DNA of 64,000 nt from Rhizodiscina lignyota (taxonomy: Eukaryota), in the NCBI GenBank assembly GCA_010015805.1, contig ML978121.1, positions 3,162,001 through 3,226,000 on the forward strand, in the 5' to 3' direction. Positions 8,163 through 63,032 of the stretch are shown piece by piece (position 1 is the stretch's first letter; each line of letters begins with the position of its first letter). The notes below the pieces were generated by a model. That model saw nothing but the letters and a program-made list of their open reading frames with translations, ran no database searches and was not told the origin of the DNA. A program made the position numbers and the translations under genes.

Positions 8163-9413
8163 GGTGGTTGACGTCTGAAACAATCATGCGTCGAGCGCGA
8201 GAGGCCGCCAAGTAGGCGGTAATTGTGATATTCGTTCGGCTAAGTGCGCCGTTTGACACGGGAGTGGTCGCGTGCGAGTTTCCGACGTCTGGGATCGGCG
8301 GGAGAAGACGAATGACGGATGTTTGGAGGATGGGTCGGCTGAGAATGGCAAAGGAAACGCTGGTCTGAGGTCGCCGTCTCAAGTGGATGCGCGATTTGCT
8401 GGTATGGCACAAGCGGACACATGCATCGCCGGAACGCAGCTGCGCAGGAAGGAGTGACTCGTCGAAAGAGCGACAACGGGTCGATAGAGCGGCGGCGGAG
8501 AATTATCGACCCGCTACAAAGGGCTGAGAGCGCGAAGAGGAGTGATTCGGACGATTTTGGGGAGGTCGGCGGTGGATAGAGGTTCTTGGTAAGAAACAGG
8601 AGGTAGTGAGGCACTGGCGTCTCCAAAAATCTCAGGGATCGGCGGGCATTCGTGGCGCACCTCAAGCGCGCTAAGTACCACTCAGCCTTGCCTGCAATTG
8701 ACAGCGTCACATGCGCGGGATCGGTGGGATTTTCACTGGACAAGTACTGTATATATTGAGCAGAGCGCAATTGCGCAGTGCACAGCAGCGTGACAGGCGG
8801 ACGTTGTCGTTGTATTAAGGTTTGTATTTTCTTCACTCGTGGCAGGCGCGTCGACCTGTCCTTCCGCTTGTGGGCTCTGTTCCTGGCAGGTGCAGGCATC
8901 CCCAATCGGGACTGGGCGACCCCACGGCCCTCATTCGCTGGCCCGCAGGCCCGCTTTATTTTTCTCAAAGAGAAATCTAATCTCCCATCCAAGCTTCACT
9001 CAAGCCGTTCGGCCTTAACTACGTAGCTAGTATTTATAGCTGACTGCCCGACCTTCATTTCCACATTGATCCTCTCGAAAACGGCGTCATCGTTCTTCGT
9101 CGACGGTCCGAACGACTCATGAACGAGCGACGCGCCTGCACGTAGCAAGGGGATGGCACTCCCTCCCTGTCACACCTTCTGTACCAGGCCCGTTTATCAT
9201 GCGGAGAAGCGCTCCATCAAAACAACGAATAGAACGCACACGATCGCGGATGGATCGATACACATCAAACACATCTCGAGTGAAACTGATATGTTCATTA
9301 GTCCTAAATACACTTTCCTGTGGGCCAGAGCCATGCTCGGACCCCTGTCCATCGCACTCATGTACAAATCATGTCTCGTTGAAGGTCATTATATGCCGTC
9401 ATCCTGCTTCGAA

Positions 9414-10852
9414 TCACTTGGTGAGTACTTTCGCATCTGTTTTACTAGTTTCGGTACTCGCAGCAGCGGCAGGAGCGGTTACAGCAGGCGCCAGACCTGC
9501 ACCAACTCTGAGACTCCCTTCCTTGCGCTTTGCAAGCAGACTCTTAAACGCCCCTAGCCACCTGGCCAGCGAGTCTTCATCCATCGTGCAGAAGCGGTAT
9601 GTCCGCTCCTCTGTAATTAGTTGGAAACAATTCTGCTTGGATTTGGAGATGGGATCAATGTCCACTGCGTCCAACAGCGTTGAGAAGGGGATGATCAGTG
9701 TTGCAGAGTATTCCTTTATGGCATTAACACTTCAGCAATGGCGGTGCGCACATATTCAACTCACCTCCTCGTTCTTGTAAATGGCAAACTGTCTAGGGCG
9801 CAAGACGCACCAGACAGTCCGCCATTGTCTTACTCCTCCCTTGGACTTGAGCAACTCTAGCCAGCCATGATACACAATGCGCTCTTCCACCGGGCTGCTG
9901 TCTCCCGCGCCAGTCGTGTTGCTGGCATTCCGCTTATTCGTTGGTCGTGGTGAGGCGCCGTAGACCTTGTTCTCGTCGGCAACTTTGGTGAGCTCTTTTG
10001 ACAAAGACGTCACTGATCCGAGGCCACCAGGGTCCGAAAAATCTGAGTATGATCCCTGCTCGTTCCCAGAGTAATTCACAACTGTATGTGATGGCCTTCT
10101 CGCGCTGTGCATATTGCTCGGTCCAGTTGCAGCTCTGTGTGGTCTGGTCTTGGTAGCAGTAGCCTCGCGGTCCTCTGAGCTTGATCCTGCCACTCCTGCA
10201 TTCCTGTCTATAACACCAAATGGTTCTCCGAGCTCCTTTGTCGCCGATGGGCTCATCAAGATCATCTCCTCATCTTCCTCGTCTATCCTTGCTTCTCTTC
10301 GGATCAACTCCACCCATTCCTGCGCCTCCTTTTCTGATGAAGCTGATAAGTGGAAGTTTCGTGAAGGCGAGAATAGGCCAAATACATAGCGTGCTTTGTG
10401 CTTGGGGTCTTTTTGGCGCGCAACAGCTGTGAGGTCGGAGAGGATGACTTGATGCCGTAGTTTCGTTTCTGCAGTGTCATGGTAAATGGATAGGAGATTT
10501 GGACGAAGGACGAGTTGAATGGGTTTCCAATGCTAAATAAGTTTTAGTTATGCTCTCATGAAGCGGTGAAGACTAGAGGCGCGATTACCTTTGTCTTTCG
10601 TGTCCGTTTCAGAACCTGTCCTGACTTGATAACGCGGTCGAATTCAAAGCTTCCATTCTGGTTGACTGGAGAGAACATGTCCAAGCTTAGCTGGCATTTA
10701 CGGACCGGTGGAGTCTTTGGTGGCATTTCGATCTTCATGTTCTGAGCAAGAGCTGTTCTGCCGTCAGACTTGGGGTTCTCCGTTGACGCTTGCCCTTGCG
10801 CCGGGGGCGGCCGTTCTGTCGTTGCAGGAAGGCCCATTGCGACTGAATGCAT
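9414..10852 (-). CDS. Tandem PH-domain protein, Opy1-like
   Basis: PH1 FDRVIKSGQVLKRTRKTK..LVLRPNLLSIY..WVELIRREA and PH2 YHGWLELLKSKGGVRQWRTVWCVLRPRQFAIYKNEE..RTYRFC..WLGAFKSLL. Two introns. Start codon uncertain (ATG 10852 or 10837). Confidence 0.82.
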
Positions 10853-39467: not shown

Positions 39468-42400
39468 TTAACTTAGCAGCTCCTTGATATCCTCGAGACG
39501 CTGTAGCTTCTTCTCCACGTCACTCATCATTCCAAGCGAGCTCGCTCTGCGTCAAGTAGTCGTCAGCAAATGCACCAGATCACAAATTTTGCACAAGAAC
39601 GATTACTGTGGGGTGGTGAAACTCACATGAACTTCTTCCTGTCTTGAATCTTCAACATCTTTTCCTCGATGCTGCCACTGACAATAAACCTGACAACTTT
39701 GACTTCGCTTTCCTGTCCCATCCTATGAACTCGATCAATAGCCTGCGCTTCAACCGCGAAGCTCCACCACGGATCCATCATGAACACCCTCTTTGCGCAC
39801 GTCAAGTTGAGTCCAACACCTCCCGCGCGCAGACTCAGAAGCAGCACGACGCCTTTCTTCCGATTGGTGAACTCGGACAAGACGGCAGCGCGCTGCTTCT
39901 GCTGCATGGTGCCGTCGAAGCGCAGGAATCGGACGCGATCACGCGTGAGAGCCGGCTCGATGAGATCCAAGAAGGAAGTGAATTGAGAGAAGATGACAGA
40001 TTTGGCTCCAGGATCTTCTCGGCGGAGGCGCTTAAGATGCGTGACCAACCCGTCAATCTTCGCAGATTGGTTGCAACTAATCCGGCGGAGCGAGATGGAA
40101 GGCGACTGCGTTCCCGATGAGGCGTCTGACCGGAAGATAGTTGGAGAATCAGGCTCATTGATGTGGTCGTGGCGAATGACTTCAAATACATCGCGCGAGT
40201 TGATCGGCTCCCGACAGTTGAAGCAGCGGGGGACCTCACCCTTGCCCCTCTGGTGTTCGATGTAGTCAAGCAGGCACTGCTTGCAAGCACTGTGCCAGCA
40301 TCCTGTAACAGCTTGCTCATTCATCGGCTCTTCGGAGCAGATTGGGCATTCATCATTTTTCTCGCTCTGAATCTGCGTGAGGACGTGGGCGCCGAAGTTG
40401 TTTGCATCTTCCTCATCTGCTGTGAAACGTGCAATGAGAGTTTGTAAATCCATATCATCAGCAAGGCCGTTGGCGGCGTCAGCGGCTTCAGCAGCTTCCT
40501 CTTCGTCTGCAACTATGTTTTTGTTCCGTGTAAGGACTGGATGGCAGCAGGATTGACGTAACCGCAGAATCTGTGCGAATATTGTGGTATAAGATCTCAT
40601 GACAGTACCAGCTTCAACGTTTGCGTTAAAGGTACGTTTTGCGCGAGTGAAGATATGGTCGTAAACATCCCGCTCGGCAGACGAGAGCTCTAAACGATCG
40701 ATTTCAATAATTCGTGGAGGAAGCGGCACGAGCGCTTCTCCATCTGGTGTTTTCATATCCTTTGTACGTCGAAGTACTAGAGGTTCCAGAACTGTTTGGA
40801 CCACGTCCAATGCGCGGATGAAATCTTTCGATTCGAAAGGTACAGTAATAAATGTCTTCCAGAAGGAGAAGTTACTCCATGGCTCGACTCGCAGAAAATG
40901 GACCAAACTGAACAGATCCTCGAGACGGTTGACAATCGGGGTTCCGGTCAAGACCCAACGATGGGTGGCGTTGATCTCGTAGCAAGCCTTCGCTGTTTTT
41001 GATTGTCTATTTTTGATGAAGTGCGCCTCGTCCAGGATGACTCTGAAATAATCCAGAGAGAACAGACCACCATGAGTTGCGCGATTTCCCCCATTTGCAG
41101 CAACTTGGTTGAACTCGGAGAGCACAACGCCATAGCTGGTGATTAGGACATTTGGTGCATTAGCCGCGTTCGCTTCACAACAAAGTTGCTGCAAATCGAC
41201 TTTCTTGTCAGTTCCATAGTACACCATGACCTTAAGAGTGCCGGATTTCGAAGCCTTCTCCGCTTCACTCTGCCATTGGGCGAGCAATGACATTGGTGCA
41301 ACGACTAAAGTCGTACGAGGCGCAGGCTCCACGGATGAAGAATTCCTTGGTAGCCTAGGCAAGTCGAGAACCGATGCTCCATTGAGCGGATCTGAGCTCT
41401 CTGATTCTAATCCATGGGAGTGTATCAGACTGAGCATCTCGATTGTTTTACCCAAGCCCATCTCGTCCGCGAGTATACCACCCAGACAATTCTGTTCCTG
41501 GACTGGGAATGACAAGGACAATTCGCCAGAATAAGGATTGACGTAGAACGTTGGTTGATCTGTGACTTCTGGCAGATCATTGTCGTCAACATCTTTCGTT
41601 GGCCAGATATACTCTTCCCACAGAGGATGCATGGACATTTGCTTGTGCTCAGCCTTCTCGTCTTTCTCCTTGCCCATCATCCAGTATAATGCCTGCTTCT
41701 GATACTTGCGCAACTCCATTGCAAAGGTCTCAGGAGGCTCCGCTTCCGGTGTATCAAAGTCGAAAGATTGCGCTTTTTTATAAAGCGTGTCCAGCTGGTC
41801 TTGTTCGAGCTCCTCGCCTTCTTCCGCGTCATCTGAAGGTGGAGTGGAACTGCCATCTCCAGACTGCGGCTTCGTCCCCTGAGTTGCTCCCTGCTTCTCA
41901 TACTGTTCAGCAACTTCAGCAGCTTGGAGTAATCCTTGACGCTTGTGCTTTTCAGTAGTCGAGTTCACTTTGCTAGGATGCAAATTGATCTCATCGAACA
42001 GCTTTACTAGCGCGACTTGTCGGAGTCGAAGGTTTCGTTCATCTTGCGTTTCCTTAGTTTCGAATATGCCAGCCTGCCTATTGCTTTCCGATGGCTTGAT
42101 GAAGCCGCCAGAATCAAAAGCAACCTTCAGCATGAAACATCGCAACTGTAGATAGATCGTGTCATTCGTTCGCACTCTATCAGGAGCAAAGACGCAGGTT
42201 CCTTCAAATTTGCAGATCTGCTGATCGAGGAGGGTTGAGACCCAAGCAGCAGCCTCATTCTCAAGCCTGCCAACTTCTTCGCCTCTGGGGTTTGTGAACC
42301 GGACCACCACATCCTGTCGCTTGCTGGAGACCGACACTATCTTCCCACCACGACCACGTTTCGTGGTTGGCTGGGTCTTGGTACGCTCTATCCCCACGCG

Positions 42401-43011
42401 CTCGGCGTGTTTGAGAAGATCTGATCCACTCCTGGTTGCCCAACCCGTGACGCCAAATGCGCCTATGTATCGCTCCTCGGGCATGTCAGACTGTCCAGAA
42501 GGGCGACGCTGTGGTCTGCTAATACTTGGAGGAGATTGTCGTGCCGAAGGCGAAAAGCTGTCTCCTGCCAAAGAAGTCGATGGAACCTGGACTGCAGGGC
42601 TTGGAGGTTCATGGGCTTTCCAAGATCCATCAAGATACAGATTTATAGCTATGAGGGTCAGCTGAACTGCAAATGATTCAGGCCTCTATCAAGCATACCG
42701 CGTTGTAAGTCATTGCCACTTTGCTCCCGCAAAATTTGCAAAGACGACGGCGGCAATTGCTCTCCAATAATGCTCGAGAAGAGCTCCAAGTCGAAGCCAT
42801 TATGATCTATACTATTCGTCGCCTGTGCTGATGCTTGGCCATCATCAACTTGCTCAAAATGTTCCCGCTGGGACTCGTAATCGGCGTCCGGCAACGCGTC
42901 GAGCTCGTCTGGAAGTGAGGATTCATGGTGTAAAGTTTCGTCGTCTACAGGATCGTCGACGAAGAATCTTCGCTTTTTCGGCGGTGGTTCCTGGAAGTCT
43001 GCATAGCTCAT
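39468..43011 (-). CDS. RAD5: DNA repair helicase / ubiquitin ligase Rad5
   Basis: HIRAN (RYIGAFGVTGWATRSG..VVRFTN..EVGRL), SNF2 GGILADEMGLGKT, ILDEAH, RING CPIC..CWHSACKQC..CFNC, SLRAGGVGLNLT, QAIDRVHRMGQ, ending RLEDIKELLS*. Two introns. Confidence 0.98.
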
Positions 43012-43392: not shown

Positions 43393-45446
43393 CTAGTCCC
43401 TGTCCCGACGTCTACTTCTACTCCTGCTACGGCTCCTTTCGCGACGGCGCTCTCGTTCTCGCTCCCGTTCTTTGTCTCTATCACCTCCCCGTTCACGTTC
43501 ACGATCTCGGTCCCTATCGCGATCTCTTGAGCGATCACGAGTGGAGCCGCCTGGCACATATCGATCAATCTCGGTGTATCGATGTCTCTCTTCTCTGTCC
43601 CGTCCATCTCGATCCCGTCCATATGAATCTCGTCGATTATCCCTCTCGTCCCTATCCCTATCCCTGTCCCTATCCCTATCTCTGTCTCTGTCTCGGTCTC
43701 GATCCCCACGATCCCCACGATCCCCACGATCACGATCGTCTCTCTTGTTGCGAACGCTAGATGAAGGAACATAGCGGTCAATGTCTGGTGGGCTGCGTGA
43801 GCGAGAACGCCGTCGTCGAGGAGGCGACAAGCTGCGATCACGAAAAGATCGTCTTGGAAGAGATCTACTTCTCGATCTATCGCGTCTATAACGAGGCGCA
43901 CTTCTACTTCGCTCACGTGAGCGCTCGCGAGCACTGCGACGAAGCTCTCGACTATCACGGTACGATCGGCTTTCCCGCGAGCGGCTTCTCTCCTTGTATG
44001 AGCCTCTATCAGATTCTCGGATTTCCTCATGCCGGCCGGATACGCGTCGAGAAGGTTCATGACTTCTCTCCTTGAGTTTCTCGTGCGGCGAGCGGTCTCT
44101 CTTCTCCTCTTGACGACTTGGTGGACGGGCACTTGCGGACATGCCATCTTTCATGCGCTTCTCGTTTGTCTCTATGGAACGTACGACTGGGGACTTCGTA
44201 GCGACTTCGCGCGGCTCTTGTTTCAGAATTTCATCTTTGACAGCAGGTACCAGCTCTGGTGTCTCAAGTACCGGTTTTGTAGAGCTTGCAGGCTTCACCG
44301 AAGTGATTTTGCCAACTTCGGTTTTGCTTTCAGATGTATCCGACTTAACGGGGGATTTTTCAAGCTTGGCCAGTCGAGCAGCAGCTGGATCACGAGGAAC
44401 GATGGACTTCGGCACTAGCATCTTCCGCGCAGGCGGTTCAAGATCCTCAGAGCGTTCAAGTTCCGGACGTTGGCGAGACTTTGCTGCTTTTTGTCCTTCT
44501 TTGAGAAGTTCCATCAGAGCTACCTCCTCGAGATCCTTCTCCTGCTCTGGAGGGATAGACTTGGCGCCTTGATCTATGCTCTGCCTGCGTCGTTCTCTTC
44601 CCCGAGTTCGCTCTCGTTCGTATTCCTCTCTCTCACGCTCTTCGCGACGGCGTCGCTCTCGCCTCTCCTCCCTCTCGCGCTCATACTGTTCTTGTTCTCG
44701 TTCATATTCCTCCTGTCGCTTGCGCTCTCGCTCTTTCTCGCGCTCTCTCTCCGCTTCCCTCTCAGCTCTGCGTCTGTCTTCTCGTTCTTTTCTCTCCTTT
44801 TCGCGAGCTTCCTCCTCCTCTCGGCGTTTCCGGCGCTCGTCCTCCACTTTCTTGCGCTCCTCACGATCCCTTCTCCTCTCTTTCTCCTTCTCTTCTTCGA
44901 GTGCTTCCACCCGCTCGTTTCGTCGAGCTTCCGCTTCTTGCGCCCACTCTTCCTCGGTCTTGCTACCTATTCGCTGCTCATTTGCTGCAGTTTCTTCGCC
45001 AACGTCCTGCCTTCGAATTGCGCGCAGTTGTTGTTCAGCATCGACGAGCAGCTCCTGCACGAATTGGTTGACTTTGTCTTCAACAACACGGTAGATGTCG
45101 CTGCGCTCTGCGCTACCTTCGATTAGAGGGGCGGCAATGCGACGGTCTTTGGCAAGGAGGGAAGGGTCGCGGTCAGTTTCGCTTTCTACGATGCCTTCGA
45201 GCGAGGCAAGTAGCGCTGTTTTTGCGTCCTAGAAGATAGCAATGTTAAATAGTGTTAAAATTAATGTCTTTTCACTGTACTTACGCCATGTTCGAACTTC
45301 AAGTAGGCTGCTTTCCTCAAACCATCAAAGTGACCTCGTTTCTTGAGTCGTTCCATCAGCCCTTCGACGGCTGCACGCTTCGTAGGCGAGAGTGGCAAGT
45401 CGGAGAGCTTTAGCGGCTTTCTGCTCTCAGCCATCGAAGCCATCAT
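43393..45446 (-). CDS. BOD1/Shg1-domain (COMPASS-associated) protein with RS/RD-rich C-terminus
   Basis: LMERLKKRGHFDGLRK..IVESETDRDPSLLAKDRRIAAPLIEGSAERSDIY, followed by a coiled coil and an RS/RD-rich tail with two IDRYVP motifs. One intron. Confidence 0.82.
43645..43735 (-). repeat. Coding microsatellites encoding (GDR)n and (DR)n
   Basis: Plus strand shows CCCTAT/CCCTGT, CTCTGT/CTCGGT and GATCCCCAC units in tandem. Confidence 0.8.
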
Positions 45447-47863: not shown

Positions 47864-50800
47864 ATGGCTTCACGGCCTGTCGTGGATACAGGCATCGTCG
47901 AGGCTGCAGTCAACCATATCGCTCTTCCGCCTATCTTGCCTGGGAAAGAAGATGGAAGCCCCAACACGATCAAACGCCTGCTCGTCGACTATATGCTTGG
48001 TTCAACTGCTCAGCTTCAAGCGCTTCGGCCGAATCACTTGCGTAGCGTCTGGGAACAAATCCATGCCGTGGTCCAAGACGCCAAAGATGTCATTTCTAAC
48101 GGCCGACTGCAAAAGGACGCGCTCTTGAAGAAATTCCGCAGTCTAGATCATGGACGGTTTCTTATACTACATGTTACCGAGCAAAATGCAGGATTGCTGG
48201 TTTACCGAGACTTCGAGTTAGTGACCATCAGACCTGAGCTTTAACTTTGTCTAACATTCACGGTGCAGGAATCCGGACGAAGTCACCTTCGAAGGTTTCG
48301 AAGCGGCTGCACCTTGCGAGCCAGTTTTAGCGGCCGAAAATGCTCTGAAGTGGGATTTCCCGACTTACAGCGTCTCAATTCCAAGCAAAACATTCGACGA
48401 CGACGAGTTCCAAGATCAACTTGCGACATTTCTCGAACATGCGAGTCTAGAATCCATCAATAGATTTGCTGCGCATACCGGCAACTCAACAGCCTGGGTG
48501 TCGGAAATACGTGATACTACGGATCCTTCCCTTATCACAAACCTCTTGATGACCCTGCTCGAAGCCCTCGGTCATCAGAGAACATCCCCATTGTTGCGGA
48601 AGCGTGTTCGAGACGAAGTCTTCTGGAAGAAAGGCATGGGCAAGCCGTGGCGTCGAAGTCCTTACTGGCTAGTCTTGAAAGTTGGCATTCAAAGATTCTG
48701 TTACCAGAGATTCGGTGGTGGCCATGGTCATGCTTACTACAAGTTCCTTATCTGCGGTGCATTGGCCCATCTTCTTGCAAACGATGGTCGCCGTCTCAGA
48801 ACAGAGCTTCGGGCCTTGCTCAACGTTAAGCTTGCGCGGCGGCTTGCGAAAATCGAGGTGGACAAAGACAATGCTCCCCTCTGCTTCAAGCCTGTGTATG
48901 AATCGCTTTTCTCAGAGCTTGGAAATTTCTTCCAAGAGGTGCTGGGCCGAACACGCAACGATTTAGAGACGATCTGGTCGAGCATTCGGGGCATCGTTCG
49001 CCCTCCAAGTTACCTACCACGCCGTGCGGACACGAGAGACCTCACTTTGACGCTCCACAATAGTATGCCGTATATCCGGGCCATTTTCTCATGGGCTCCC
49101 GAATTTGATCAACTTCGGGTCCATCCCGTCAACTTAACGAAGGCGACGACAACTGCAGCTACAAAATTCGCACATCGTTACTTTGAGCTCACCGCACAAG
49201 AGATGGAAATAGAAGTCGACGTCATAGCGCCGATGGAGGTTACGGAGGAGAATTGTATTGCTCTTGCTGATCAAATTGAGCAATACCTGGACGATGTGGG
49301 CGAGGCGTACAATTACGATCCTTTGCAAAAGAGTGCGATGCTTCTCACTGTCATGCAACTGTGGGTCATCCTGGACCAAATCGCGACTGGATTGTATGAA
49401 CTGCTTCTTGAGTTCAACCCTGGTTGCGTCCCGTCACTCTTCGACGTTCTTCTGGCACCACATCGCCAGGATATGCATCGACTTCAAGCAATTCAGAACT
49501 ACATCAAAGAGCGCCTGAAACAATGCAAATATCCGAACGAAACTATCTTCGACAGCCTCTCTTTTGCAGAGCGCTATTTTGATTGCTCCCCTAGCGCACC
49601 CAAGCTTCAATCACTGTTCGCTGAAATCACTGCACTGGGCGATGCTGGACGAGTACGCAAAGAGCAAGAGTGGCGAGCCATGAATGACGAATACAACTCA
49701 ATTATGGCACAAAGTCAATTCGCAAGCTGCACCTGCTTACCACACTCTTATGGCTGTGTGAAATGTGGTCTCGAAGCCCAGGCTAGACGCATGAGGATCA
49801 ATGTCCATGAACATCCTCTACCCTCTCGCCCTACGGAGGCGAAAGCTGTGATTTTCGAAATGTGCGCCCCGGAGGCATTTCAAGCATACCGAAACACAAC
49901 TTGGCGGATCTTTGGCACACTCACGAGAGAACTACAATCTGTCACCGATCGTCAAGTCTATTTCCTTCGAGATTACTCTGCACTAAAAGATCTCAAAGAG
50001 TCTTCGATGGATGGCATCTGTCTTGCGTCCGTGAAAAAATCATGGATCGACTCTCACTACAGACAAGTCAACTTTCCCGTTCCATTGTCCGAAGTTTGCT
50101 TGCCAAACAGATTCGAGTTTGGTCTTTATGACTCGAAAACCAAAGTTTGGACAGCCAATTTTATTGACTTCGCTAAGCTCTCTCATCACGTTGCTGTCAA
50201 GCTGCCCGGAAAGTCTCCCTTCAGGGCCTTGTACACCTTGCCTCAGTTTGCGCCGGATTCAAATGGTCGAACGTCCAACGAAATCATTGCGAGCCAAACT
50301 GAGTGTCCAGCGACTATGAGCACGCATGAGTTTACCACATTTCAATCTCTGCAGAGTGGAAAATTTCGGCGCTGGGTCTATCTTCTCATCGAACTCGGCT
50401 GCCAAAACATAAATTTCAGTAACGAGGCCTGCGTATCGGTGACTAACATGCTTGTGGATCAGGCTGGCCCAGAATGGCATGACGACCTGCGCCGTAAGGT
50501 CCACCATGTTTTCAAAGACGCAAATTTCTGCAACCGGCTCTTGGAACAGCTCCGTCTCCGTCTTGAGAACATTTCATCCAACTGGCGAGAATACCAGCAA
50601 ATGGAACTTATCATTTCGATCCTGCTGAGAACGGTCCACCTTGGGCCTACCTCTGTAATGACAGACGCAATGCGTTTGTTGCTCAGCGTACGCAGCACCA
50701 CACTTGAATGGGCACGCCTTCTGCGGAAAGAAATCCAAATGTGTACGGATATGAAGTCTTCTCAATCATGCTCCTCCTATGGGTTCTGGGCAGCTTTACT

Positions 50801-53800
50801 CTGCAAGAGGACATTTTCGGTATACGTCGGTCACGAAATTATCGAACATGAGGAACTCTGCCAGTATTTCGAATGCTCAATCGCCCTTCAAGACAACCTC
50901 ACCGCAGATCCAGACAATCTGCCCTCTTTCTCTAAGCACGCACTCGTTCGAGACCTCAAAACGACCTTCCGGATGCGGAACCTGCTCAGACGATCTCTTG
51001 GAAATAGCCTCACCGCTCTTTCGGAAGCAGTTGATAGCATATGGCCCCGAGATCGTTCAAACGCAGAGCGCACCTATTCGAGCCTCAGTTTTCTGGATTC
51101 ACCACAGGAATGGTGGGTCCATGCCACGATCAAGGCGACTTCTCGGACACGCGCGCAATTGGTGCATTACCATTTGCTTCATGGAACACTTCTCATTGAC
51201 GGTATGCCGTTGGGAAAACTCCCGCCGGATATCCGCAATGCGCCAGTCGTGAAGCAGCTCTTCGGAGACCAGAATTTGATGATTTATCCCTCAAGCCTGC
51301 ATGGTATGAGCCACATGCTTGCCTTGGACAATCATGGACACCAGATACATCTGGGCTTCCGTAACGGAGATCTTGTTCTTAGGGCACAGCACTATGGGTC
51401 GCTTCTGGAATTCATTCAAGCAGACAAATTTGGCACGCCGACGGACTTTGATCTTCCGGAGAATTTGATTTCGAACTGCCATCACTGGCTAGACCTCCAC
51501 ACTGGCGTTATTGAAATTCGTCAAGGCCCCGAGCACTGGAAACCCAAGGCTGGAAATTGGAAGCTGGATGTTCACAAGCGTGTCGCACAACGCCGAGAAA
51601 GCATTCTCGTCGATCCACGAAGCAGGACATTCGATAGAGTCGCATCCGCGTTCAAACATTTCGAAGACCGCTATCAGCTCACTGTCTTCATGCCCAAATC
51701 GAGACTGTCTGTCGAACTACGACGTCTAGAATTGCAGTTCTTTGTCAACGAAAGAAATCTCTTAGAATGCCGTCAGTTGAGCGCAGAGATTGATGAAGAT
51801 CAAGACGCTGGTACATTCTATGGACTGATGTCCATGCTGGTCCTCAGAGAGGTAGTTCGCGGCCATGGGCAGAGCATCGTCAATAAAAATCGAAGAAGTA
51901 TCCTCACGCCGCTCGGTCCTCCGGACGGTTGCACTCGCCGAGGGGATCATGTTTCGGTTATTTTGTCAAATCGTGGGTCCTACGGGATCTACACAATCAA
52001 TCAATCTCTCGGACGTCTTGAGTGTGCACCGGAGCCGCGCTTATTATACCACAAGGCATATCTTCATGCCGTTACCTCCTTCATCTTGCCTGACCCCTTG
52101 ACTGGTTTCACTGGAAGCGAAATGGCCTTCCGGGACCTACAGAGCGGACAGTTCCAGCCATGGGCGCCCCTCTCTCCAACTTGCCTGACTATTTTGAACG
52201 AAATCAGAAGTCTGAGCCCGAAGCGCCAGTACTACCCACGCGATAGGCGCACAATGCAAGTTGTTGAATGGAATCAATATCTGAGCACTGCGGTGCAGCG
52301 TGACGAACTCAGCTTCCTGGTGCAAGACATCGTGAAGAAATCTGAGACTTTGTCCAGATTTCATCTAGGCCAAGTCGAATATTCCAACCCGAACTCACCT
52401 TCAGAAGCGCATCTAACTCGACGGGCTGGTTTTCGACGTCGACTTTTCGAGCGTATTGACTCTGCTTTTGACCCTGGATTTGGGAAACCCCCAGACATGG
52501 AATACGTTTCGAGGGGACGCCGCACAGCCACGCAGGCACGCAAAAATGTCTATGAAGTCGTGTCAATTCTGCGCAGCTGGCCCTCGGCCTTGCTAACTCC
52601 CACTGATTTCGCGGGTATCCTTCAGCGATATCCCACGATAGGTGGATTTGTCGCCCCATTTTCGCCAGTTTTGCTTTCGGACACTTTGGAAGCCCAACAT
52701 GGCATCCGTTTCGGAGAATTAGTCGAACTGTGCCGCAGCTGCGGCATCTCTGATGTCTACAGACTGATGTTTTTAACGGCACTGTTATCTTTCCGTAATG
52801 ACGTGGACATGGACGTTATGCGAACATTCATTGCCTTTGCGATCTTCCAAGACCTCAAGGATGTAATTCCCCCGCCGTGGTCTTCGTACACGCACTTCCG
52901 GGCAGACAGTGGCCCTTCCTTTGATTATCTTGTTCAGATGATGAAACCATCTGCAGCTCAGTATGCTGGCGATACCGGCGGTTTGGGCGAGTTTCTTGAC
53001 CAGAAGACGAAGAAGAGACTTCGGAAGGAGAGGGAACAACATGAGACTCTTGTGCAGCAAGAATGTGAAACGCTCGCCAAAGCTTTTCTCCAGCAATGGC
53101 CCAGCGCCGAAATCGACAGTTCGAGCGTTCCTCGGATGTCTACGCTTGATGTTTCTCGAATTAAAGACGTTGTTCAGCCCGAGTGGACCCGACTCTTCCA
53201 CAATCGACAGCTTTCGAATTATGTACAGCACATTCAGAAATCCCTGGACAAGTTTCGGACAGAGGAGCAACTGAGCTTCCCCATGTTCGAGACGACTGAC
53301 CCAGAGGTTTTCCCGAGTCATTTGGAAGGGCAAGACATCCCAAAGCTTTCAGTAGAGCTCGTTCGAAAGCCATTCTCATCTCCATCGAACGGTCATTCAC
53401 GCACAACGGCTTTGGCCATTCATAAGACTGGCATACCAAAAGAGAATGACCCACCTGTCTTGTCGTTCCCGGTCCAGATCAAGCCGAAGGCAAACGAAAT
53501 TCTCAATGGACCTTCTTTCCAGACCAGGCAGAATTGGGATGAGTTGAAGACGATTATTCTGAAGGTAATGAACTCACCTTCCAGCATCCGACAGCAGTAT
53601 GGGGAAGACCTTCTGCAAAGTCTCGAAGACCTCAAGGCTATACACATAGTACCGAAGGTCACTTCCCAGCAGACAGATCTAGACTTTCGCCAATTGCAGC
53701 AAAGACTCGTAAGCCGTTTCAGAGACATTAACATGGCATTCGAAGCCAACGACCCGAGAGCCAAATGGCTGAAGCCTGGTCTGCTCTGGCCACCGCTTAG

Positions 53801-56800
53801 TCTAATCTCTATCCTTGAAACTCTTCGAAGCACCTGGAAATGCTCCTTCGGCTCGAACATGAAAAATGCGGTGACTGATCTTGCTGTTACGGTTACTCAG
53901 CTGCAGCGAGCATTGCGACTGGAAGATGCGAACCTGAAGAAGAATCGCCAGAGAATTGAAGAAGAACAGAAAAACAAAGGCCATACAAATTGGAAACCTA
54001 TGGAGAAGCCTGACTGGGTTCTTTTAGAAATTGACGCTGATATGATGATACGCCCAGAGCAAGTTGAAGTGGCAATTGCCACAATCAGTCCTGAAAGCGG
54101 AGATGCCTCGCTTCTCCAAATGAACATGGGGCAAGGAAAGACTTCTGTCATTATGCCAATGGTTGCCGCTGTGCTTGCTGATTCAAAGCGTCTTCTGCGG
54201 CTTATAGTGCCAAAGGCACTACTTCAGCAAACGTCGCAGCTCCTTTCCGTCCGGCTTGGGTGTCTTCTTGGCCGTGAAATTCGACATGTCCCATTCTCTC
54301 GCAAGACTTCCAACGACAACAATACCATCAAATCATTCTTTGAGATCCATCGCGATATTCGCGCAAAGTCTGGAGCAATCATTGGTTTACCCGAGCATCT
54401 ACTGAGTTTTATGCTCAGCGGGCTTCAAAGACTGGCGGATGGCCGAGTTAACGAAGCGAGAACCTTAATTGGTGTCGAATCATGGATGAGACGATGGGCC
54501 CGAGACGTATTAGATGAATCCGACCATATACTCTCTGCTCGAACGCAGTTGATCTACCCTTCAGGCTCGCAAAAGACTCTCGATGGACACCCCCACCGCT
54601 GGGAGACGGTACAATCGTTGCTGGGACTCGTAGCAGGGCACTATTTCAACTTGAAAAAGGCATTTCCTTTCAGCATGGAGGTCATAGAGCGGCGGAACGC
54701 ATTCCCTATGGCTTACTTCCTGCGGCCCGATGCGGAGCAAGCTCTTCTCGGTCGCTTAATAAACGATGTACTCTCCGGCCAGGTTCCCACCATCCCAATC
54801 CAGCAATGTTCGAGGGAACAGAGATCCTCAATTCGCCGTATTATCTCGAACCCAGTCGTAGCTCCCGTCGACGCTGAGCGGGTTCGCAATCTGTTCCCAG
54901 ACAAGCCTTCTATCAAGCAATCTGTGTACTTGGTTCGTGGCCTGCTTATTCACCGCATTCTCTTGCTGGCATTGAAAAAGCGCTATAATGTCCAGTATGG
55001 CATTGACCCGCGCCGTGACCCTGTCGCCGTGCCCTTCCACGCTAAAGGAGTTCCCTCAGACCAGGCAGAGTGGGGCCATCCTGATGTCGGCATTCTCTTC
55101 ACCTGCCTTAGCTTCTACTATGGAGGGCTCAGTAGCAATCAGCTGCGCCAAAGCCTTACCCACATATTGCAGCTGGACGATCCCGCATCAGAGTACGACA
55201 TGTGGACGCAGAGCTCCCCACACCTTCCCGAGTCTCTTCGCGACTTTAATCTGCTAAATCTCGACGACGAGGCGCAACTTAAAGCTCTTTGGACTCATTT
55301 CCGCTACAATGTTCCAGCTATCAACTGTTTTTTGAACGAATATGTGTTTCCAGTCCACGCCAAACAATTCGCCGTCAAGATTCAAGCCTCAGGCTGGGAC
55401 ATCATTCTTCGGCCACTGGACAAACAGCAAAATGGCTCCTCAGGACCGCTAACCACTGGCTTCAGCGGAACGAATGACGCTCGTTTGCTACTACCAATGA
55501 CGGTCGCCCAGCGTGACCTGAAGGGCTTGTCACATACAAATGCTGAGGTTTTGTCGGTACGTACATGTATTTCTCTTAACTTATATAACAGTTCTTCTAA
55601 CAATTTTCTTTTCTTGCAGTATCTATTTGAGCCGAGGAATCGGGGATATATGCTTGCCTCCTCGCGCTTGGGAAAACGACTGAGCGAAATAGAGCTCCTC
55701 GCAGTTCTCAAAAACGAGAGAATCCGAGTCCTCATCGATGCGGGCGCTCAAATACTGGAGATGGACAACGTGACTCTCGTACGAAACTGGTTGAAGGTCG
55801 ACACTGAGCCACCGGCAGCCGTATACTTCAATTCGGAGAACAAGCTATATGTATACTATCGTGGCGGGAATATATGTCCACTTGCTGCAACACCATTCGC
55901 AGAGAATCTGAGCGATTGTCTCATCTATCTAGACGAATCGCATTGCCGAGGCACGGATTTGAGGCTTCCTGCGAATGCGAAAGGTGCTTTAACACTGGGG
56001 ATCGGACTGAGTAAGGATTCCGCCGTACAAGCCGCGATGCGCCTTCGACAACTTGGTACGACGCAATCTCTCTCCTTCCTGGTGCCCCCTGAAGTTCATC
56101 AGAGCATTCTGGACGTCTGCAAGAAGTCTCGCAGTGACTGGATCGACTCGGCTGACGTGGTGCATTGGTTGTTGGAGCAGTCATGCGTTGGAATTGAGTC
56201 ACTTCAACCTCTTTTCTTTGCGCAAGGCTCAGACTACTGTCAGCGCATGCAAGCGGCGAAGGACTTCGCCGCGTTCCTGGACGACGAGAGTGATCGTGAA
56301 GCTTATTTAGCTATCTTACGCCAACCAGAGCGCCAGACCATTCAGAAGCTTTATCAGCCGAAGACTACCAAAAAGGCCACAAAAGATCTTGCCATTACCG
56401 ACGCTGACCTTAAAAGTTTCATGGATGAACTGCACGTTCGACGCAAAGGGTTCCATGATTCTGGAAATACTGTCCAGAGTTCCGCATTGCAAGAAGTGGA
56501 ACAAGAACGCGAGGAGGAGCGTGAGACAGAGGCTGTCCGCGAAGTGCAGAGGCCGGTTCCTTTTGCTCCTCACGGTTTCGGTGGAGTGCACAAGGATATC
56601 TTAGAATTCTGCAAGACCGGCTATCTCGTTGCTAACTCACAATCCTATGACAGGTGTCTAGAAGCTCTCCGTCGAGGTACAGCTCTCGGTGTCAAGCATG
56701 GGATTAACATCGCTGCGGATAAGTCTAGGCTCTTTGTGTCTCGCGAATTCATGCAGACCGTCAAGATCCCCGGCGATCGCCTAAATGACGACTTTTTGCG

Positions 56801-57584
56801 CTCTACCCACTGGATTCTCTGGAGCGAAATTTCTCAGACTGCGTTGCTCCTGGTTCCGGAGGAAACGGAAGTTATCATGCGCCTGTTAAAGGAGTGGAAG
56901 AACCCGCAGACGCACCTCCTTGCCTATTCTGCGCCAACGACTAGGAAGACCATGCAGTTCAACAATCTGAACTACTATGCCACTCCTCCGCTGCCAGATG
57001 GCTGGAAAGCTCCTCTTTGGCTCAAGATTCAGGTTGGCTTGTTCGCGGGAGCTTCGTACTTCTCTTACGAAGAGTATGAAGCTCTACTGGAGATTTTGGG
57101 TCTGAACAAGGATACGCTACAGTCGTCGGATTCAGAGGAAGACGGTGACGCCGGTGCAACAAGGACAGACGGTGTCGTCGCAGCCAGCGACGCACAGCCA
57201 AAGTTGACCTTCACGGCAAAGCCAACTGTGTTTCTTGGAGAGTGGCTGGCCATACGTCGCAGGGGACAAGAAAGCAAGCAAACACCCATGGGATTCTTGG
57301 TGCAGCACAAGCCTCTTCACGAAGATCACCATTTCTTCGCACCACCAGGTGTGAGCACGACAACGAACGCGAGTAAGGTAAAGAAGTCGGCGGCTAAGGG
57401 CCCGAAGCTCGCTGTAGATGTTGCCGAAAACGAGGAGAGCGAGGATGACGATGTGTTCTATGACGCTGAGGCGTTTCCGGAGGATGATGATGTTGAGGAT
57501 GAGGATGAGAAGGCAGATCATTTCGACGAGGAGGCTCACAAGCTGTGGAGCAGTGATCTTCCGGATGAGGGTAAACAGAAATAA
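47864..57584 (+). CDS. Giant (~3200 aa) DUF6606/DUF3638/DUF3645-type P-loop protein
   Basis: NHIALPPILPGKED, LHVTEQNAGLL, RDTTDPSLIT, PWRRSPYWL, KPDWVLLEIDADMMIRPEQ, QMNMGQGKTSVIMP, DVLDESD, AVPFHAKGVPSDQAEWGHPDV, TGFSGTND. Intron 48217-48268 joins ORF 47864; a second in-frame intron lies at 55557-55619. Confidence 0.9.
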
Positions 57585-58697
57585 ATTGCATGTCTAGGCT
57601 AGCATGGTCGAGCTTATGCCTCGGAGTTAGTTCGAAACAGGAATATGTGTGTATTCTTCTCATTCCTTTTCACTTCACCATGGCAGATATGGTATTGAAA
57701 TAGATTCGTGACTGTGATGACGATAAATCCGCCTATTTCTTTCCATCCCACATGGCAGACCTTTCGCTGACGCACTTTATTACGCCTCGAGCGGCTGACT
57801 GAGAAGCTGCATTGCTGGAAGCTCTGAGTGACGGAGACGGCCAGTGAAAATTTCCGTTCCACAAAGTGCTATTCGACGGAAACAAGACTCTTAAAAGGAA
57901 TATTTACAGTTTCTTCAATTGACTTTACAGTGAAGACTCTTGAATTCAGAGATAGTGATTGAAGCCGTCACAGATACATAAGGGAACCAGGTACTACTAA
58001 GGCGACTTGGGGGACCAACTGTTGGCAGTCTCGCTCTAGACACCATGTACGGCTGGCTTCCTTTATGGTCAACCGTGGACCGGATTTATTCGAATACTTT
58101 TATCCCCAGGCTCATGTTCTACGTCGAACGTTTGATACTTTCATGCCGTGAGTGTTCGCGCCCAAGGATGCATAAGCTTCAACTTAAAGTTACGCCGCTC
58201 CCCTGTGTTCATCTACCTGTCCGGCAGTAATTATAATCTCCGTCAGCAATTTCTTATGTCCGAAGAACGGGGCTGAATTGAAATACAAGGGAATATCCAA
58301 AACTATGTGTAATTGGTGTTGTCGTCTCATGGAAAGATGGAGCTAATCCCAATTTGGCAAAGTGTTTGGCAACATACGAAAGTAAGTTAGTAGATAGGTC
58401 GCGCATGGTCGCGACATCAGCCATGAGCCCTCAACCAAAGTCTCCGATCACGAACTCAAGTAGGCAAGTGGTAAGAGCTCTTTCGATATTCCAGCTGAAA
58501 GATAGAAACGCCGACATCAGACCAACGCCAACGCAATGCTCAGGGCCCGACGCGTCGTGACGAACGTGCGGCAGAGTCATGAAATCGATAAAGGGGAGCG
58601 AATGTAAAGGCTGTGGGTTCAGAATTTCATTTTTACGCTTACCTCTTCGTCCTACTTTTTTCAGTTGCCTCCTTTGGGACTAAAGGTCTCATCTGTC

Positions 58698-60213
58698 ATG
58701 TATTTCTTCTGGATATCAGTCGCCTTTGGTTTGGCGACAGCGATGGGCAGAGATGGCGCGGCGTACGGCTCCATACTCGACCAAAGGAGCTACAAGGAAG
58801 AAGACATCATTCGTCGAGACGTGGCAGTCATTGGAGGCGGTGCGTCAGGAACTTACGGGGCCATCACACTGGGTGATATGGGCAAGAGTGTAGTGCTCGT
58901 GGAGCGAGAAAAGAGGCTTGGGGGCCACGAGAATACGTATACAGATCCTGTCACCGGCACTCACATCGACTATGGCGTGCAAACGTATGCCAACATCTCT
59001 GTTAGTCGGGACTTCTTCGCCAGGTTCAACATTCCCGTCACCAATTTCACTTTCCCGGCCGGAACCACAGTCTATGCAGACTTCAAGAGCGGACACGTGC
59101 TTCCGAGGTTTTCGCCAGGAATCAACTTCGCCCCGTACGTCCAGCAGCTTACAAAGTATCCCGATCTTGCGTGGAGTTGGAATATATCGACGCCTGTTCC
59201 GAAGGATCTCCTTCTTCCATTCGGGGACTTCGTGAAGAAATACCATTTGGAGGATCTCGCATTTTCCGTCTTCTCGAATCCGCAGGGCGCCGCCAATCCC
59301 CCATTTCTAGAGCAACTGACAGTAAATGTCCTCAAGATTACGGACGAGTCGTATCTTCAAGGACTTCAGGAAGGCGGCGGTACGTGGGCTGATGTCGACA
59401 GAGCGCTGGAACACCTTGAACATATGCTGATATTCCTTTTGCACCCAGATCTGGTGACCGCAAACCACGACAACGGTGCCTTGTACGCGGCAGCCCAAGA
59501 AGAACTCGGTTCGAACGCGCTTCTTTCTTCGACCGTCATCGCCGCCCATCGGCCATCAGATGATTCCTGTGTCAGTCTCGTCGTCAAAACGCCGCACGGC
59601 TGGAAACTCGTCGTCGCATCGCAATTGCTTGTTAGCATTCCTTTGACAATTCCTAACATGGCGCCTTTTGACCTCGATAACGATGAGCGGGCTCTATTCG
59701 AAAAGTTTCATTACAGCGGATACTACACTGGTATTTTCAAGAACACTGGCCTCTCTAAAGGCACTAGATATGTTAATATTGATCTCGACACTGAATACCA
59801 CATTCCCAACCTTCCTGGCGCATACGATATCACTCCAACTGCTGTCGAGGGTACGTACCTTATAACTCTGGAGTTTTGAACAAGTTACTTAACGAGAAAC
59901 AGGCATATTCTACTATTGGTTCGGGAGCCCCAAAGAGCTGTCCCAAAAGGAAATCGAGGCCGAGATGATTGCTACAGTTCGCCGACTTACCAATTCATCC
60001 GACGAGGTGCCCGAATTTGTCGCCTTTGCCTCTCATTCTCCCTTCAAACTTGAGGTATCCGCAGAGGACATCCAGGACCGTTTCTATGACAAGCTCTTTG
60101 CACTCCAGGGGAAGAGGAAGACCTGGTACACAGGGGCTGCGGTTGAAAGCCATAATTCTGGGGAGCTCTGGAACTTCACGAATGCTTTGCTTCACCGAAT
60201 GGTCGATGCTTGA
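58698..60213 (+). CDS. Secreted FAD-dependent oxidoreductase (flavin amine oxidase superfamily)
   Basis: Signal peptide, DVAVIGGGASG, VEREKRLGGH, IDYGV, LQGKRKTWYTGAAVESHNSGELW. Introns 59380-59448 and 59851-59902. Confidence 0.9.
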
Positions 60214-60709: not shown

Positions 60710-63032
60710 ATGGGTGTAAGTCTCGCTCAAGCGGCCTCTGAGTCTCAATTGCTCGCCATCAGCCGCATACCCCGCCAACGTCATAGTGCCCCTCACTGAC
60801 AGGATTTTGCAACAGCTTGCTAGCAAACTTGCTGCCTCTCAAGGAGGCGCCCCGTCGGCTCCATACGGAGGAGCCGCGCCTCAACAATACCCGCCTGGGC
60901 CTCCTCAGGGACAGAAGCCAGGCGCCGGTGGCTATGTGAGTGAATGTGCCTTGGATCGCTGCCTAGACACAGCTAACTTTCGTTCTCTAGCCCGGGCAGC
61001 CAGCGTACCAAGCCTACCCTGCGCAGGTAAGCACATCCCGCTTTCCCTTGAGCTACTAGTTTCCTGCCGCTTCGTCATCACCCCCAACCCCCGCCACACG
61101 CTTGAGCAAACATCCACGACGTTGTCTCCCTTCCACAAATCCGCTACATACAAACTACTCGTGCTTTTGGATCTCTGGCATACCGTTCACGATGTACGGC
61201 CGGACAAATCAGAACCCTCCCTATCCCGCAACCTCCTCACCGCATCCGCAGGCGCTCCAGCCTGGGCATTCGCAACAGCAATCGCAATATCCAGGACAAC
61301 CCTCTCCGCAGCCCTACGGCCAAGGCTATAACCAACCCTCATCTTCCCCTCAGCCCTACGGCCAGAACTACAATCGACCCGCTCCACCTCCTCCAGGATC
61401 TGCTTATCCAAATCAGCAATATGCACCACAGCAGCAGCAGCAATTTGGCTACCAAGCACCACAAAGCCAATACTCTCCTCAACCCCAAGGCTACGGTGGG
61501 CAGCCATCGTATCAGTCTCCGCCTCCACAATTCGGCTATGTTGGTGGCACACTGAGCACTTTTCACACAAAGGTGTTTTGAATATACGCTAACGTAGTTT
61601 GTGCAACAGGGACAAGGTGGCCCTCCGCAGGGTGCTCAAGGATACGCCCCACAGGGCGCTCCAGGCCAATACCCTCCCCAAGGGCAACCAACCGCCGGCG
61701 GCTATGGCAGTGCTCCCTCTGGTGGACCATCTCAACCACCTAGCGCGTACAAGAACCTTCTGCTTCAATTCATTCAGAGGGAAGGTCTAGGACACATTTA
61801 CCCACCAAATCATCCGCTCTTGGATCAGATCGCCAGTACTGCGGGCCCGAAGATTGACCAAATCTGCCAGAAGTGGCGCATGCCCAAGGAGGTTGGAAAT
61901 GATGTCTTGCAACTTGGATTGTACGACATCATTCTCTACATCGGTATGTCAGACCAACTCATTGTATTCTTGCTCTTTGTCGAGGGATGTGTCGGTGTGA
62001 CGGAACATATAACTTACAATGAGCAGATGACAGTGGCTCCATGCAGTTCGAGGAAGGCGGTGAGCGTATCCAGGACTTGCGCGTCACACTCGAACGTGTT
62101 GCCTACGCCGCGACTCTCTTCGATGAGGACGGCATCTCCGTTCGGTTCATGAACTCTCAGCCACCACAACAGCTCATTGACAACATCCGCAGCGAGCAAC
62201 AGATCGCGCAGTTGATGCAGAGCGTCCAGTTCAGAGGCTTGACACCTATGGGTACTGAACTTCGCCGTAAAATCGTCGATCCACTCGTGCTTTCCAAGGC
62301 AAGAGCCGGCCAATTGAGGAAGCCCGTCCTCGTAATCATGATCACGGACGGTCAGCCTGGTGGAGAGCCAAAGGACGCCGTCAATGAAACTGTCAAGTAT
62401 GCCAGCCGTGAAATGAGCCGCACCCAGTTTGGTCCGAAGGGTATCGCCTTCCAGTTCGCACAAGTTGGCAAGGACAAGGCCGCACAGGCATTCCTTAACA
62501 AGCTCGACGAAGATCCGGAGGTTGGAAACTTGATCGACTGTGTCTCGGGTCTGTCTCCCCTTGAAATTTTACATCCAGAAGCATTTAGATTTGGGCACAA
62601 TGTTCTGACTTTCTCATAGACTACGAGACCGAGCAAGAAGAGGCCTCACGATCGGCACAGCCTATCGATCTCACGCCCGAACTGTACCTCATGAAACTTC
62701 TCCTCGGCGCCGTTGATTCGACTTATGACTCAAAGGATGAGCGCAGAGCTCGTCATGCAGGTGCAGGTGGTGGCGGTGGCTACAGTGCACCCGGCGGATT
62801 TGGAGCTCCACCAGGGTACGGCGCCGCGCCCCAGACCGGACAACCAGGCTACGGAGCTCCTCCTCAGAGTCAGGGATATGGCCAACCAGGCTACGGAGCT
62901 CCTCCTCAGAGTCAAGGATATGGCCAACAAGGCTACCCGCCGCAAGGTGGCGCAGGGCGTGGTTTTCCGCCGCAACAAGGCTCCTACGCTCCTCAAGGCC
63001 AAGGCTATCCCGGTTCCGGCCGTGGCTACTGA
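60710..63032 (+). CDS. vWA-domain protein with G/P/Q/Y-rich low-complexity termini (RfeF-like)
   Basis: MG|LASKLAAS, DIILYI|DDSGSM (MIDAS DxSxS), GLTPMG, VIMITDGQP, FAQVGKD. Multiple introns. Confidence 0.87.
62841..62936 (+). repeat. 42-bp coding tandem repeat (QPGYGAPPQSQGYG x2 plus partial copy)
   Basis: Units 62841-82 and 62883-924 differ at one synonymous base. Confidence 0.9.

Follow-up and report, generated by a model that had tools for sequence, protein, structure and literature searches.

A giant Rhizodiscina lignyota protein of the DUF6606-DUF3638-DUF3645 family with a predicted superfamily 2 ATPase motor closest in shape to SecA

The DNA analysed here is a window of 64,000 nucleotides from Rhizodiscina lignyota (GenBank assembly GCA_010015805.1, contig ML978121.1, positions 3,162,001 to 3,226,000 of the forward strand), and the subject of this report is one of its genes, located at 47864..57584 on the plus strand and deposited as 'hypothetical protein NA57DRAFT_30565', of 3,181 residues. 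The region holds a single gene, intact and spliced; it encodes a soluble protein of about 3,200 residues, a member of the DUF6606-DUF3638-DUF3645 family. The explanation of the whole towards which we lean, with moderate confidence, is that this intact family member contains a superfamily 2 (SF2) motor with SecA as its nearest relative, working as an ATP-driven clamp on a polymer, and a scaffold for partners or substrates. Throughout the text, residue numbers are those of the deposited protein and coordinates are window positions.

Family assignment and conserved ATPase motifs

Three Pfam families are recognised in the protein above their respective cut-offs: PF20255 (DUF6606), N-terminal, at residues 16-287 (E-value 5.1e-76, 256 bits against a cut-off of 27); PF12340 (DUF3638) at residues 2003-2224 (293 bits against 31); and PF12359 (DUF3645) at residues 2344-2376 (E-value 1.1e-14, 53.9 bits against 25). 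Beyond these, no Pfam family passes its threshold within the 3,181 residues, in a scan carried down to E <= 10. The SF2 motifs I, Ia, II, III, V and VI are all present and in order, and an Arg/Gln pair lies 22 residues ahead of the P-loop, at the position of the Q-motif:

54051..54062 (+), invariant Arg/Gln pair R-P-E-Q (R2026, Q2029), the Gln at 54060-54062
54126..54143 (+), Walker A / motif I, MGQGKT
54207..54230 (+), motif Ia, VPKALLQQ
54510..54566 (+), Walker B / motif II, LDESDHIL (54510-54533), including the conserved ARTQLIYPSG of the outgoing stem strand
55458..55472 (+), motif III, GFSGT
55929..55961 (+), motif V region, LDESHCRGTDL (RGTDL at 55947-55961)
56028..56051 (+), motif VI, QAAMRLRQ

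Conservation was counted on 292 aligned rows, with 261 relatives at 29-58% identity. The Walker A lysine is kept in 243 of 250 rows, and the three defining residues of D-E-x-D in 260/260, 259/260 and 260/260; each residue of F-S-G-T is found in at least 255 of 256 rows. For R-G-x-D the counts are 244/244, 243/243 and 242/242, and for the Q..R.R of motif VI they are 242/243, 225/227 and 223/223. R2026 and Q2029 are invariant in an alignment of 34 full-length sequences. Judged from the sequence, such a set is far beyond what chance would be expected to give.

A preliminary description of this locus, made from the letters of the DNA, had announced a complete SF2-like motif set, interrupted by an insertion of about 310 residues before GFSGT. 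Every motif that it listed was found, near-invariant among the 261 relatives, and the distance from Walker B to motif III amounts to 315 residues. Its motif coordinates were all right except for GFSGT, which starts at 55458 rather than at 55455.

Predicted structure of the motor and of its insertion

The ability of the region to fold as a motor was analysed by using AlphaFold2 with the 34-sequence alignment. The modelled module corresponds to residues 1944-2953 of the deposited protein and was read through an in-frame intron described below; the features located within it, and the tail at the end of the protein, are the following:

53805..56897 (+), modelled ATPase module of 1,031 residues, made up of N-terminal helices, RecA1, the insertion, RecA2, the long helix and additional C-terminal elements
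54531..55451 (+), 307-residue inserted domain between motifs II and III, with two long antiparallel strands as a stem and otherwise mainly helical
55005..55103 (+), DUF3645 motif (PF12359) inside the insertion
56148..56264 (+), helix of 39 residues immediately behind RecA2 (module residues 782-820), with more helices and strands after it
57339..57581 (+), acidic tail of 81 residues at the C-terminus, isoelectric point (pI) 4.1, net charge -17

The model reached a predicted local distance difference test score (pLDDT) of 83.6 and a predicted template modelling score of 0.76, and it contains two alpha/beta RecA-like domains, so that the tandem RecA-like fold which the preliminary description had called for is predicted with good confidence. 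In module numbering, N-terminal helices (17-94) are followed by the first alpha/beta domain, with motifs I, Ia and II. A long strand straight after Walker B (248-258) carries the ARTQLIYPSG sequence, and a long strand at 520-529 returns; motif III follows at 552-556, and then the second alpha/beta domain, with motifs V and VI. The insertion has a pLDDT near 90 except at module residues 394-421. The DUF3645 motif, its best conserved stretch, falls partly in this low-confidence segment.

On this model, DUF3638 and DUF3645 together are predicted to form an SF2 ATPase motor, composed of two RecA-like domains with the full conserved motif set. The pI of the whole protein is 6.7, while those of RecA1 (10.2) and of the insertion (9.1) are basic. 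No hydrophobic segment was detected along the whole protein, the best 19-residue Kyte-Doolittle mean being 1.52.

Likeness to SecA

The predicted structure was compared with solved structures along three search routes. By using Foldseek against the PDB, ranks 1 to 13 were all taken by SecA (best E-value 5.2e-08), the first other protein being MDA5 (7.6e-06). A second look by VIA-align on 973 chains, where rows within 1 Z count as tied, also placed SecA at ranks 1 to 13, with Z between 16.9 and 16.2 and 400-551 residues aligned, over model ranges extending from residue 1 to 844-906. The best non-SecA chains in this set were eIF4A (Z 16.0, 344 residues aligned from residue 56) and RIG-I (Z 15.7), and generic SF2 cores aligned over about 340 residues, starting at model residue 56-83. 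An independent VIA search of 48,161 cluster-representative chains had the SecA family at ranks 1 to 3; SecA and other SF2 rows of this search are reported below.

E. coli SecA: Z 16.2, 400 residues aligned
Isolated SecA motor: Z 16.1, 326 residues aligned, root-mean-square deviation 4.0
SecA2: Z 15.8, 455 residues aligned
FANCM: Z 14.8, 344 residues aligned
Dicer-2: Z 14.7, 322 residues aligned

Hundreds of SF2 chains were retrieved at Z >= 8 in the structure searches. For the predicted model, SecA is thus placed as the nearest relative among solved structures by all three routes, the bare motor included, with a modest margin. No characterised helicase family outranks it in any of them, as the SecA-like ATPase proposed in the preliminary description would lead one to expect.

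The likeness to SecA and SecA2 (PDB 1m6n, 1tf2, 2fsf, 3bxz, 3dl8, 6itc and 4uaq) includes the N-terminal helices and the helix after RecA2; the 39-residue helix falls inside the range aligned to the C-terminal helical part of SecA, since the model ranges reach 844-906. In SecA, a stem of two strands between motifs II and III carries the preprotein cross-linking domain (PPXD), and the second nucleotide-binding domain is succeeded by a long scaffold helix. An inserted domain on a two-stranded stem is predicted at the same place in the R. lignyota protein. Chains of SecA bound to SecY align over 525-551 residues of the model, as compared with 346 for the motor-only chain (VIA-align, 973 chains). 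Because at most about 100 residues of the aligned range follow RecA2, roughly 100 of the additional SecA-aligned residues would lie in the insertion, opposite the PPXD; this placement was derived from the aligned ranges. E. coli SecA also shares, in the same order, the patterns M..G.GKT, DExDxIL..ART.LI..SG, G[MF][TS]GT.D and RGTD[IL].

The two proteins differ in several respects. Motifs II and III are separated by 315 residues here and by 180 in E. coli SecA; the insertion is about twice as long as the PPXD, is mainly helical and holds the DUF3645 motif, and motifs Ia and Ib differ. The motor is embedded in a eukaryotic soluble protein of 3,181 residues, which lacks a SecY-type partner context, a membrane segment and the C-terminal zinc tail of SecA. 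Action at SecY in the manner of SecA would not be expected, because the protein is eukaryotic, encoded by a nuclear gene with spliceosomal introns, and shows neither a signal peptide nor a membrane segment by hydropathy.

A number of results weigh against the SecA-like interpretation, and are considered together here. The structural margin is small, with eIF4A (16.0) and RIG-I (15.7) near the SecA value of 16.9 in one search and FANCM at 14.8 against 16.2 in another. Sequence comparisons with E. coli SecA gave a probability of 0.09 by hhalign with the family alignment, a best E-value of 5.9 by BLASTP, and 1.8 bits with the family hidden Markov model (hmmsearch --max, filters off), in a test where two controls, an E. 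coli open reading frame (ORF) and the Rad5-like SNF2 protein of the window, were likewise without score. The Pfam family SecA_DEAD (PF07517) is absent from the protein, even at E <= 10, and from all of 28 relatives (0/28), and SecA_PP_bind and SecA_SW are absent from the protein in the same scan; no wing domain or two-helix finger of the SecA type was recognised. The recurrent weak Pfam match is DEAD instead, found in 14 of the 28 relatives with a best E-value of 4.4e-05, always below the gathering score. To the eye, and against the remembered consensus, motifs Ia and Ib read like those of DEAD-box proteins more than those of SecA. XPD/DinG-type helicases carry their Arch domain at the same place, between motifs II and III; an insertion at this position is not unique to SecA and, by itself, does not prove kinship. 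The size of the insertion, about twice that of the PPXD, and its mostly helical build, modelled only within the module, point the same way, and no experimental datum for any family member was found in the literature.

Searches of PDB sequences with the single protein, with the module profile and with the full-length profile returned chance matches only. By sequence criteria the protein would not be classed as a member of the SecA family; in its predicted shape it is SecA-like. Of the SecA-like ATPase put forward in the preliminary description, the fold, the motifs, the placement of the insertion and the ranks in the structure searches were borne out, whereas a sequence link to SecA was not obtained by hhalign, BLASTP, hmmsearch or Pfam.

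Divergent SecA-type motors buried in very large multidomain proteins have a precedent in giant bacterial proteins of Omnitrophota and Actinobacteriota, for which, in the available part of the report, a role other than canonical SecA's is proposed (West-Roberts et al., bioRxiv 10.1101/2023.11.21.568195). As described there, the SecA_DEAD and preprotein-binding Pfam models recognise those motors, which have many adjacent transmembrane helices and lack the scaffold and wing; the protein described here, in contrast, is eukaryotic, soluble and unseen by the SecA Pfam models. SecA-like domains are also described in bacterial toxins, in the available part of an eLife article (PMC8195603), which does not concern this eukaryotic family.

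Helicase and relic alternatives

The same motor might belong to a nucleic-acid-dependent SF2 helicase or translocase, for example an RNA/DNA surveillance or remodelling enzyme using the giant scaffold as a platform, an explanation that we regard as possible, if rather unlikely. SecA itself does not act on nucleic acid. DEAD-box and RIG-I-like helicases share with the module a two-RecA core at Z 15-16, sub-threshold DEAD matches and a Gln at the Q-motif position, and eIF4A, DbpA, Dbp5, RIG-I, LGP2 and MDA5 all score within about 1-2 Z of SecA; only about 340 core residues align, however, and these proteins are without an insertion between motifs II and III or matching N- and C-terminal helices. 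Weak Pfam matches of the 28 relatives, beyond the DUF families, include ResIII (3/28) and UvrD-helicase (2/28) in addition to the DEAD matches reported above, none of them at the Pfam gathering score. The basic character of RecA1 and of the insertion would suit a nucleic acid substrate, while the strongly acidic tail speaks against it, as do the first place of SecA in all three structure searches, motor alone included, and the absence of any known nucleic-acid-binding Pfam domain from the 3,181 residues. A role in conflict or surveillance would fit the variability and expansion of the family in some lineages: in the available parts of the respective reports, a member is described as a lineage-specific gene of an Aspergillus oryzae strain (PMC6237848), a family gene of Plasmodiophora is highly polymorphic (bioRxiv 10.64898/2026.10.14.759018), and the family forms a large gene family in microsporidia (PMC5423893). 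Searches of NCBIfam and PADLOC gave nothing useful, and the lack of a defence-helicase family in PADLOC counts against the helicase explanation.

It is very improbable, in our opinion, that the motor is a non-catalytic relic in a protein serving only as a structural scaffold. No measured activity of any member was found in the literature, as would be the case for a relic; the catalytic residues, however, are near-invariant in relatives as distant as 29% identity, which would be unexpected without selection for nucleotide binding and hydrolysis. The SecA-like motor very probably hydrolyses ATP.

The N-terminal scaffold and the deubiquitinase annotation

According to the gap pattern of the alignment, the protein is divided into blocks covering residues 1-400, 440-1040, 1080-1320 and 1340-1780, followed by a linker (1780-1860) and then by the motor and the C-terminal region. 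The second block was modelled separately. Its position and that of its conserved residues are:

49236..51050 (+), scaffold block II, residues 441-1045, mostly helical, its helices long, with a small beta core and an alpha-solenoid as the C-terminal half
49728..49766 (+), Cys/His cluster C605-x4-H610-x3-C614-x2-C617 (CTC..CVKC)
50304..50306 (+), invariant Cys797
50502..50504 (+), invariant His863

The block II model reached a pLDDT of 91.1 and a predicted template modelling score of 0.88. Foldseek produced no match to it at E <= 0.001, the best being Ufd2 at 0.12. A wide VIA search returned helical-repeat proteins only (importin, exportin and Ltn1-type), with a best Z of 9.9 over model residues 328-603, a value within the background of the tool for helical models. 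An alpha-solenoid shape usually binds proteins. In the 34-sequence alignment C605, H610 and C617 are conserved in at least 90% of the sequences and C614 is invariant; the CTC..CVKC cluster pointed out in the preliminary description is therefore a conserved C-x4-H-x3-C-x2-C set, and a candidate zinc-binding site.

The annotation of relatives raises the question of a peptidase: the name 'ubiquitinyl hydrolase 1' is borne by many UniRef relatives and by two giant-virus entries. The protein might then be a deubiquitinase or another cysteine protease, with the motor feeding or positioning substrates, and this we consider improbable. Besides the name, the arrangement of conserved residues in block II is in its favour, with two invariant residues, Cys797 and His863, and two that are at least 90% conserved, His714 and Asp739 (the region from His714 to His863 spans 50055-50504, plus strand), and the order His714-Asp739-Gln794-Cys797 resembles that of clan-CE proteases. 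When this set was considered as a Ulp1-type (clan CE) site, the block II model gave no protease-like match by either Foldseek or VIA, in lists that helical repeats may fill. In papain-type sites the catalytic Cys begins a helix, whereas Cys797 follows the end of one in the model. No deubiquitinase or peptidase family was found by Pfam at E <= 10, the USP, UCH, OTU, Josephin, MINDY, ZUFSP and JAMM families being included in the scan, and the whole-length profile has no relative in the PDB.

The DUF6606 head was considered as a second possible location of a cysteine protease. It has a conserved His18 and a Q107-N108 pair, encoded in exon 1. Of 164 rows, 125 have Ala at the position following the pair, 26 have Cys and 9 have Ser; Thr also occurs there, and the position varies in close as well as in distant members, so that it cannot hold a nucleophile; this candidate was ruled out. 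Residues 120-440 had low recognition in the ESM Atlas, with unnamed bacterial clusters only. The preliminary description had seen no ubiquitin-hydrolase box; this agrees with the absence of a deubiquitinase domain, while invariant Cys797 and His863 exist nonetheless. For NA57DRAFT_30565, 'ubiquitinyl hydrolase 1' looks like an unsupported automatic label.

Distribution of the family

Of 7,988 candidates scored in a word-indexed search, 1,156 were relatives at E <= 0.001. The 120 relatives listed are fungal wherever named and show 52-58% identity across the motor region; among them are Xylographa, Orbilia, Botrytis (BCIN_11g01980), Fusarium and Coccidioides. All three Pfam families are found in 112 of the 120, the remaining 8 being shorter models. 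With the 1,031-residue motor region as query, HMMER was run exhaustively and retrieved 5,132 cluster representatives at E <= 1e-3, of which 1,491 also reached E <= 1e-30. Orbilia javanica and Geoglossum simile have at least two paralogues each under one locus-tag prefix.

The 34 full-length members are collinear end to end, with a mean column identity of 38%. Because invariant residues are spread from 149 to 2963, the scaffold of about 1,900 residues appears to be as constrained as the motor. The other giants of the family have the same order of Pfam families, about 3,100-3,300 residues and the same conserved motor motifs. Other members from Pezizomycotina are 41-58% identical to NA57DRAFT_30565 and show no notable difference from it; it is a typical orthologue of a catalogued yet unstudied family. 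No functional study of any member was found in the full-text literature, supplements lying outside this coverage; seven articles do no more than list its domains. The preliminary description had presented the protein as a candidate for an undescribed system. Concerning function this holds for the searchable literature; the family, on the other hand, was already catalogued in Pfam and the protein already deposited.

Outside the fungi, a fold search of viral models had nine giant-virus proteins on top, with E-values from 6.7e-27 to 3.0e-12. Hokovirus contributes four of them and Fadolivirus, Harvfovirus, Hyperionvirus, Yasminevirus and a Megaviridae sample one each, and seven of the nine are named either DUF3638 or 'ubiquitinyl hydrolase 1'. 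Only the motor module is in common with these proteins, at 13-17% identity and a template modelling score of about 0.5, normalised to the query. A pattern scan of IMG/VR with the fungal alignment gave 18 pattern matches, none of which was confirmed.

Two further observations concern the databases. GenBank contigs NYXK01000198.1 and NYXK01000134.1, labelled 'MAG: Deltaproteobacteria bacterium isolate CPC1', each encode a relative, with 52% and 47% identity, respectively, across the entire motor region; in both (6001-9194 and 6001-9559, respectively) the gene is split over several frames, as with spliceosomal introns. They are most likely fungal contigs mis-binned into a bacterial metagenome-assembled genome, rather than family members from bacteria. 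Among the 120 listed relatives, five longer ones have additional Pfam domains (DNA methylase, aspartyl protease, NACHT-like plus TPR, MFS transporter and HET, one set each); these are probably gene models merged with their neighbours rather than true fusions.

Gene structure and neighbouring genes

The limits of the gene given in the preliminary description, 47864 and 57584, are exactly those of the coding sequence, which is organised as follows:

47864..57584 (+), coding sequence, with the ATG at 47864 and the stop codon ending at 57584
47864..48219 (+), exon 1, residues 1-118 and two bases of codon 119, with the start of DUF6606; the spliced reading equals the deposited protein
47909..48776 (+), DUF6606 domain, residues 16-287, spanning intron 1
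48220..48271 (+), intron 1, 52 nt, with the classic fungal signals GTTAGT...CTAAC...CAG
48272..55556 (+), exon 2, from which the deposited model also cuts out 53472-53531
53472..53531 (+), 60-nt in-frame stretch, cut out as a putative intron in the deposited model, with the weak signals GTCCAG...GCAG
55557..55619 (+), in-frame intron, 63 nt, GTACGT...CTAAC...CAG
55620..57584 (+), exon 3, stop codon included

An open frame of 3,028 codons lies at 48498-57584 (+), its stop-to-stop reading opening at 48255. The deposited protein is joined across intron 1, and the DUF6606 profile runs on across it. When the in-frame intron at 55557-55619 is read through, it adds 21 residues that have no counterpart in 33 aligned relatives and are missing from the deposited protein; in the AlphaFold2 model, module residues 582-601 of this read-through fall below a pLDDT of 50. 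The 60-nt stretch at 53472-53531 falls in a gap-rich, poorly conserved linker and may be coding rather than an intron. Apart from this question, the product of the spliced gene is the deposited protein.

Four neighbouring genes or frames were recognised in the window. Upstream, on the minus strand, 39626-42685 encodes a Rad5-type protein with HIRAN, SNF2-related, RING and Helicase_C domains, a second and unrelated SF2 ATPase, and 43396-45228 encodes a COMPASS Shg1-domain protein. Downstream, on the plus strand, a FAD/NAD-binding oxidoreductase is found at 58608-59876, and at 62023-62616 an ORF with a weak vWA-TerF-like match (E-value 6e-06, below the gathering score).

Proposed function and significance

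In the mechanism that we propose, the inserted domain would serve as a clamp: driven by ATP, the two RecA domains would close and so move it against RecA2 and the long helix. The clamp would grip a polymer and either remodel or thread it, while the helical scaffold of about 1,900 residues, with its Cys/His cluster, could hold or present partners or substrates. A polypeptide is our tentative choice of polymer, slightly favoured over nucleic acid because of the consistent ranking of SecA, the absence of a nucleic-acid-binding domain and the solenoid scaffold; the weak sequence signal of DEAD type and the near-tie in Z weigh against a polypeptide substrate.

A more ambitious reading sees in the family, eukaryotic and giant-viral, an ancient descendant of the SecA motor or its analogue, working as a soluble clamp on polypeptides, driven by ATP, that grips and threads or unfolds cytosolic proteins on the 1,900-residue scaffold. 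Taken in full we hold it to be unlikely; the SecA-like interpretation appears reasonable for the predicted shape, and descent from SecA is unproven. If true, the known protein-remodelling machines would gain a new class, set apart from AAA+ unfoldases and Hsp70/Hsp100 systems.

With about 3,200 residues, conservation over its full length in Pezizomycotina, 5,132 clusters of its motor module and relatives in giant viruses, the protein represents a large blind spot. The prediction of an active-looking motor, nearest to SecA, turns three DUFs into concrete testable hypotheses.

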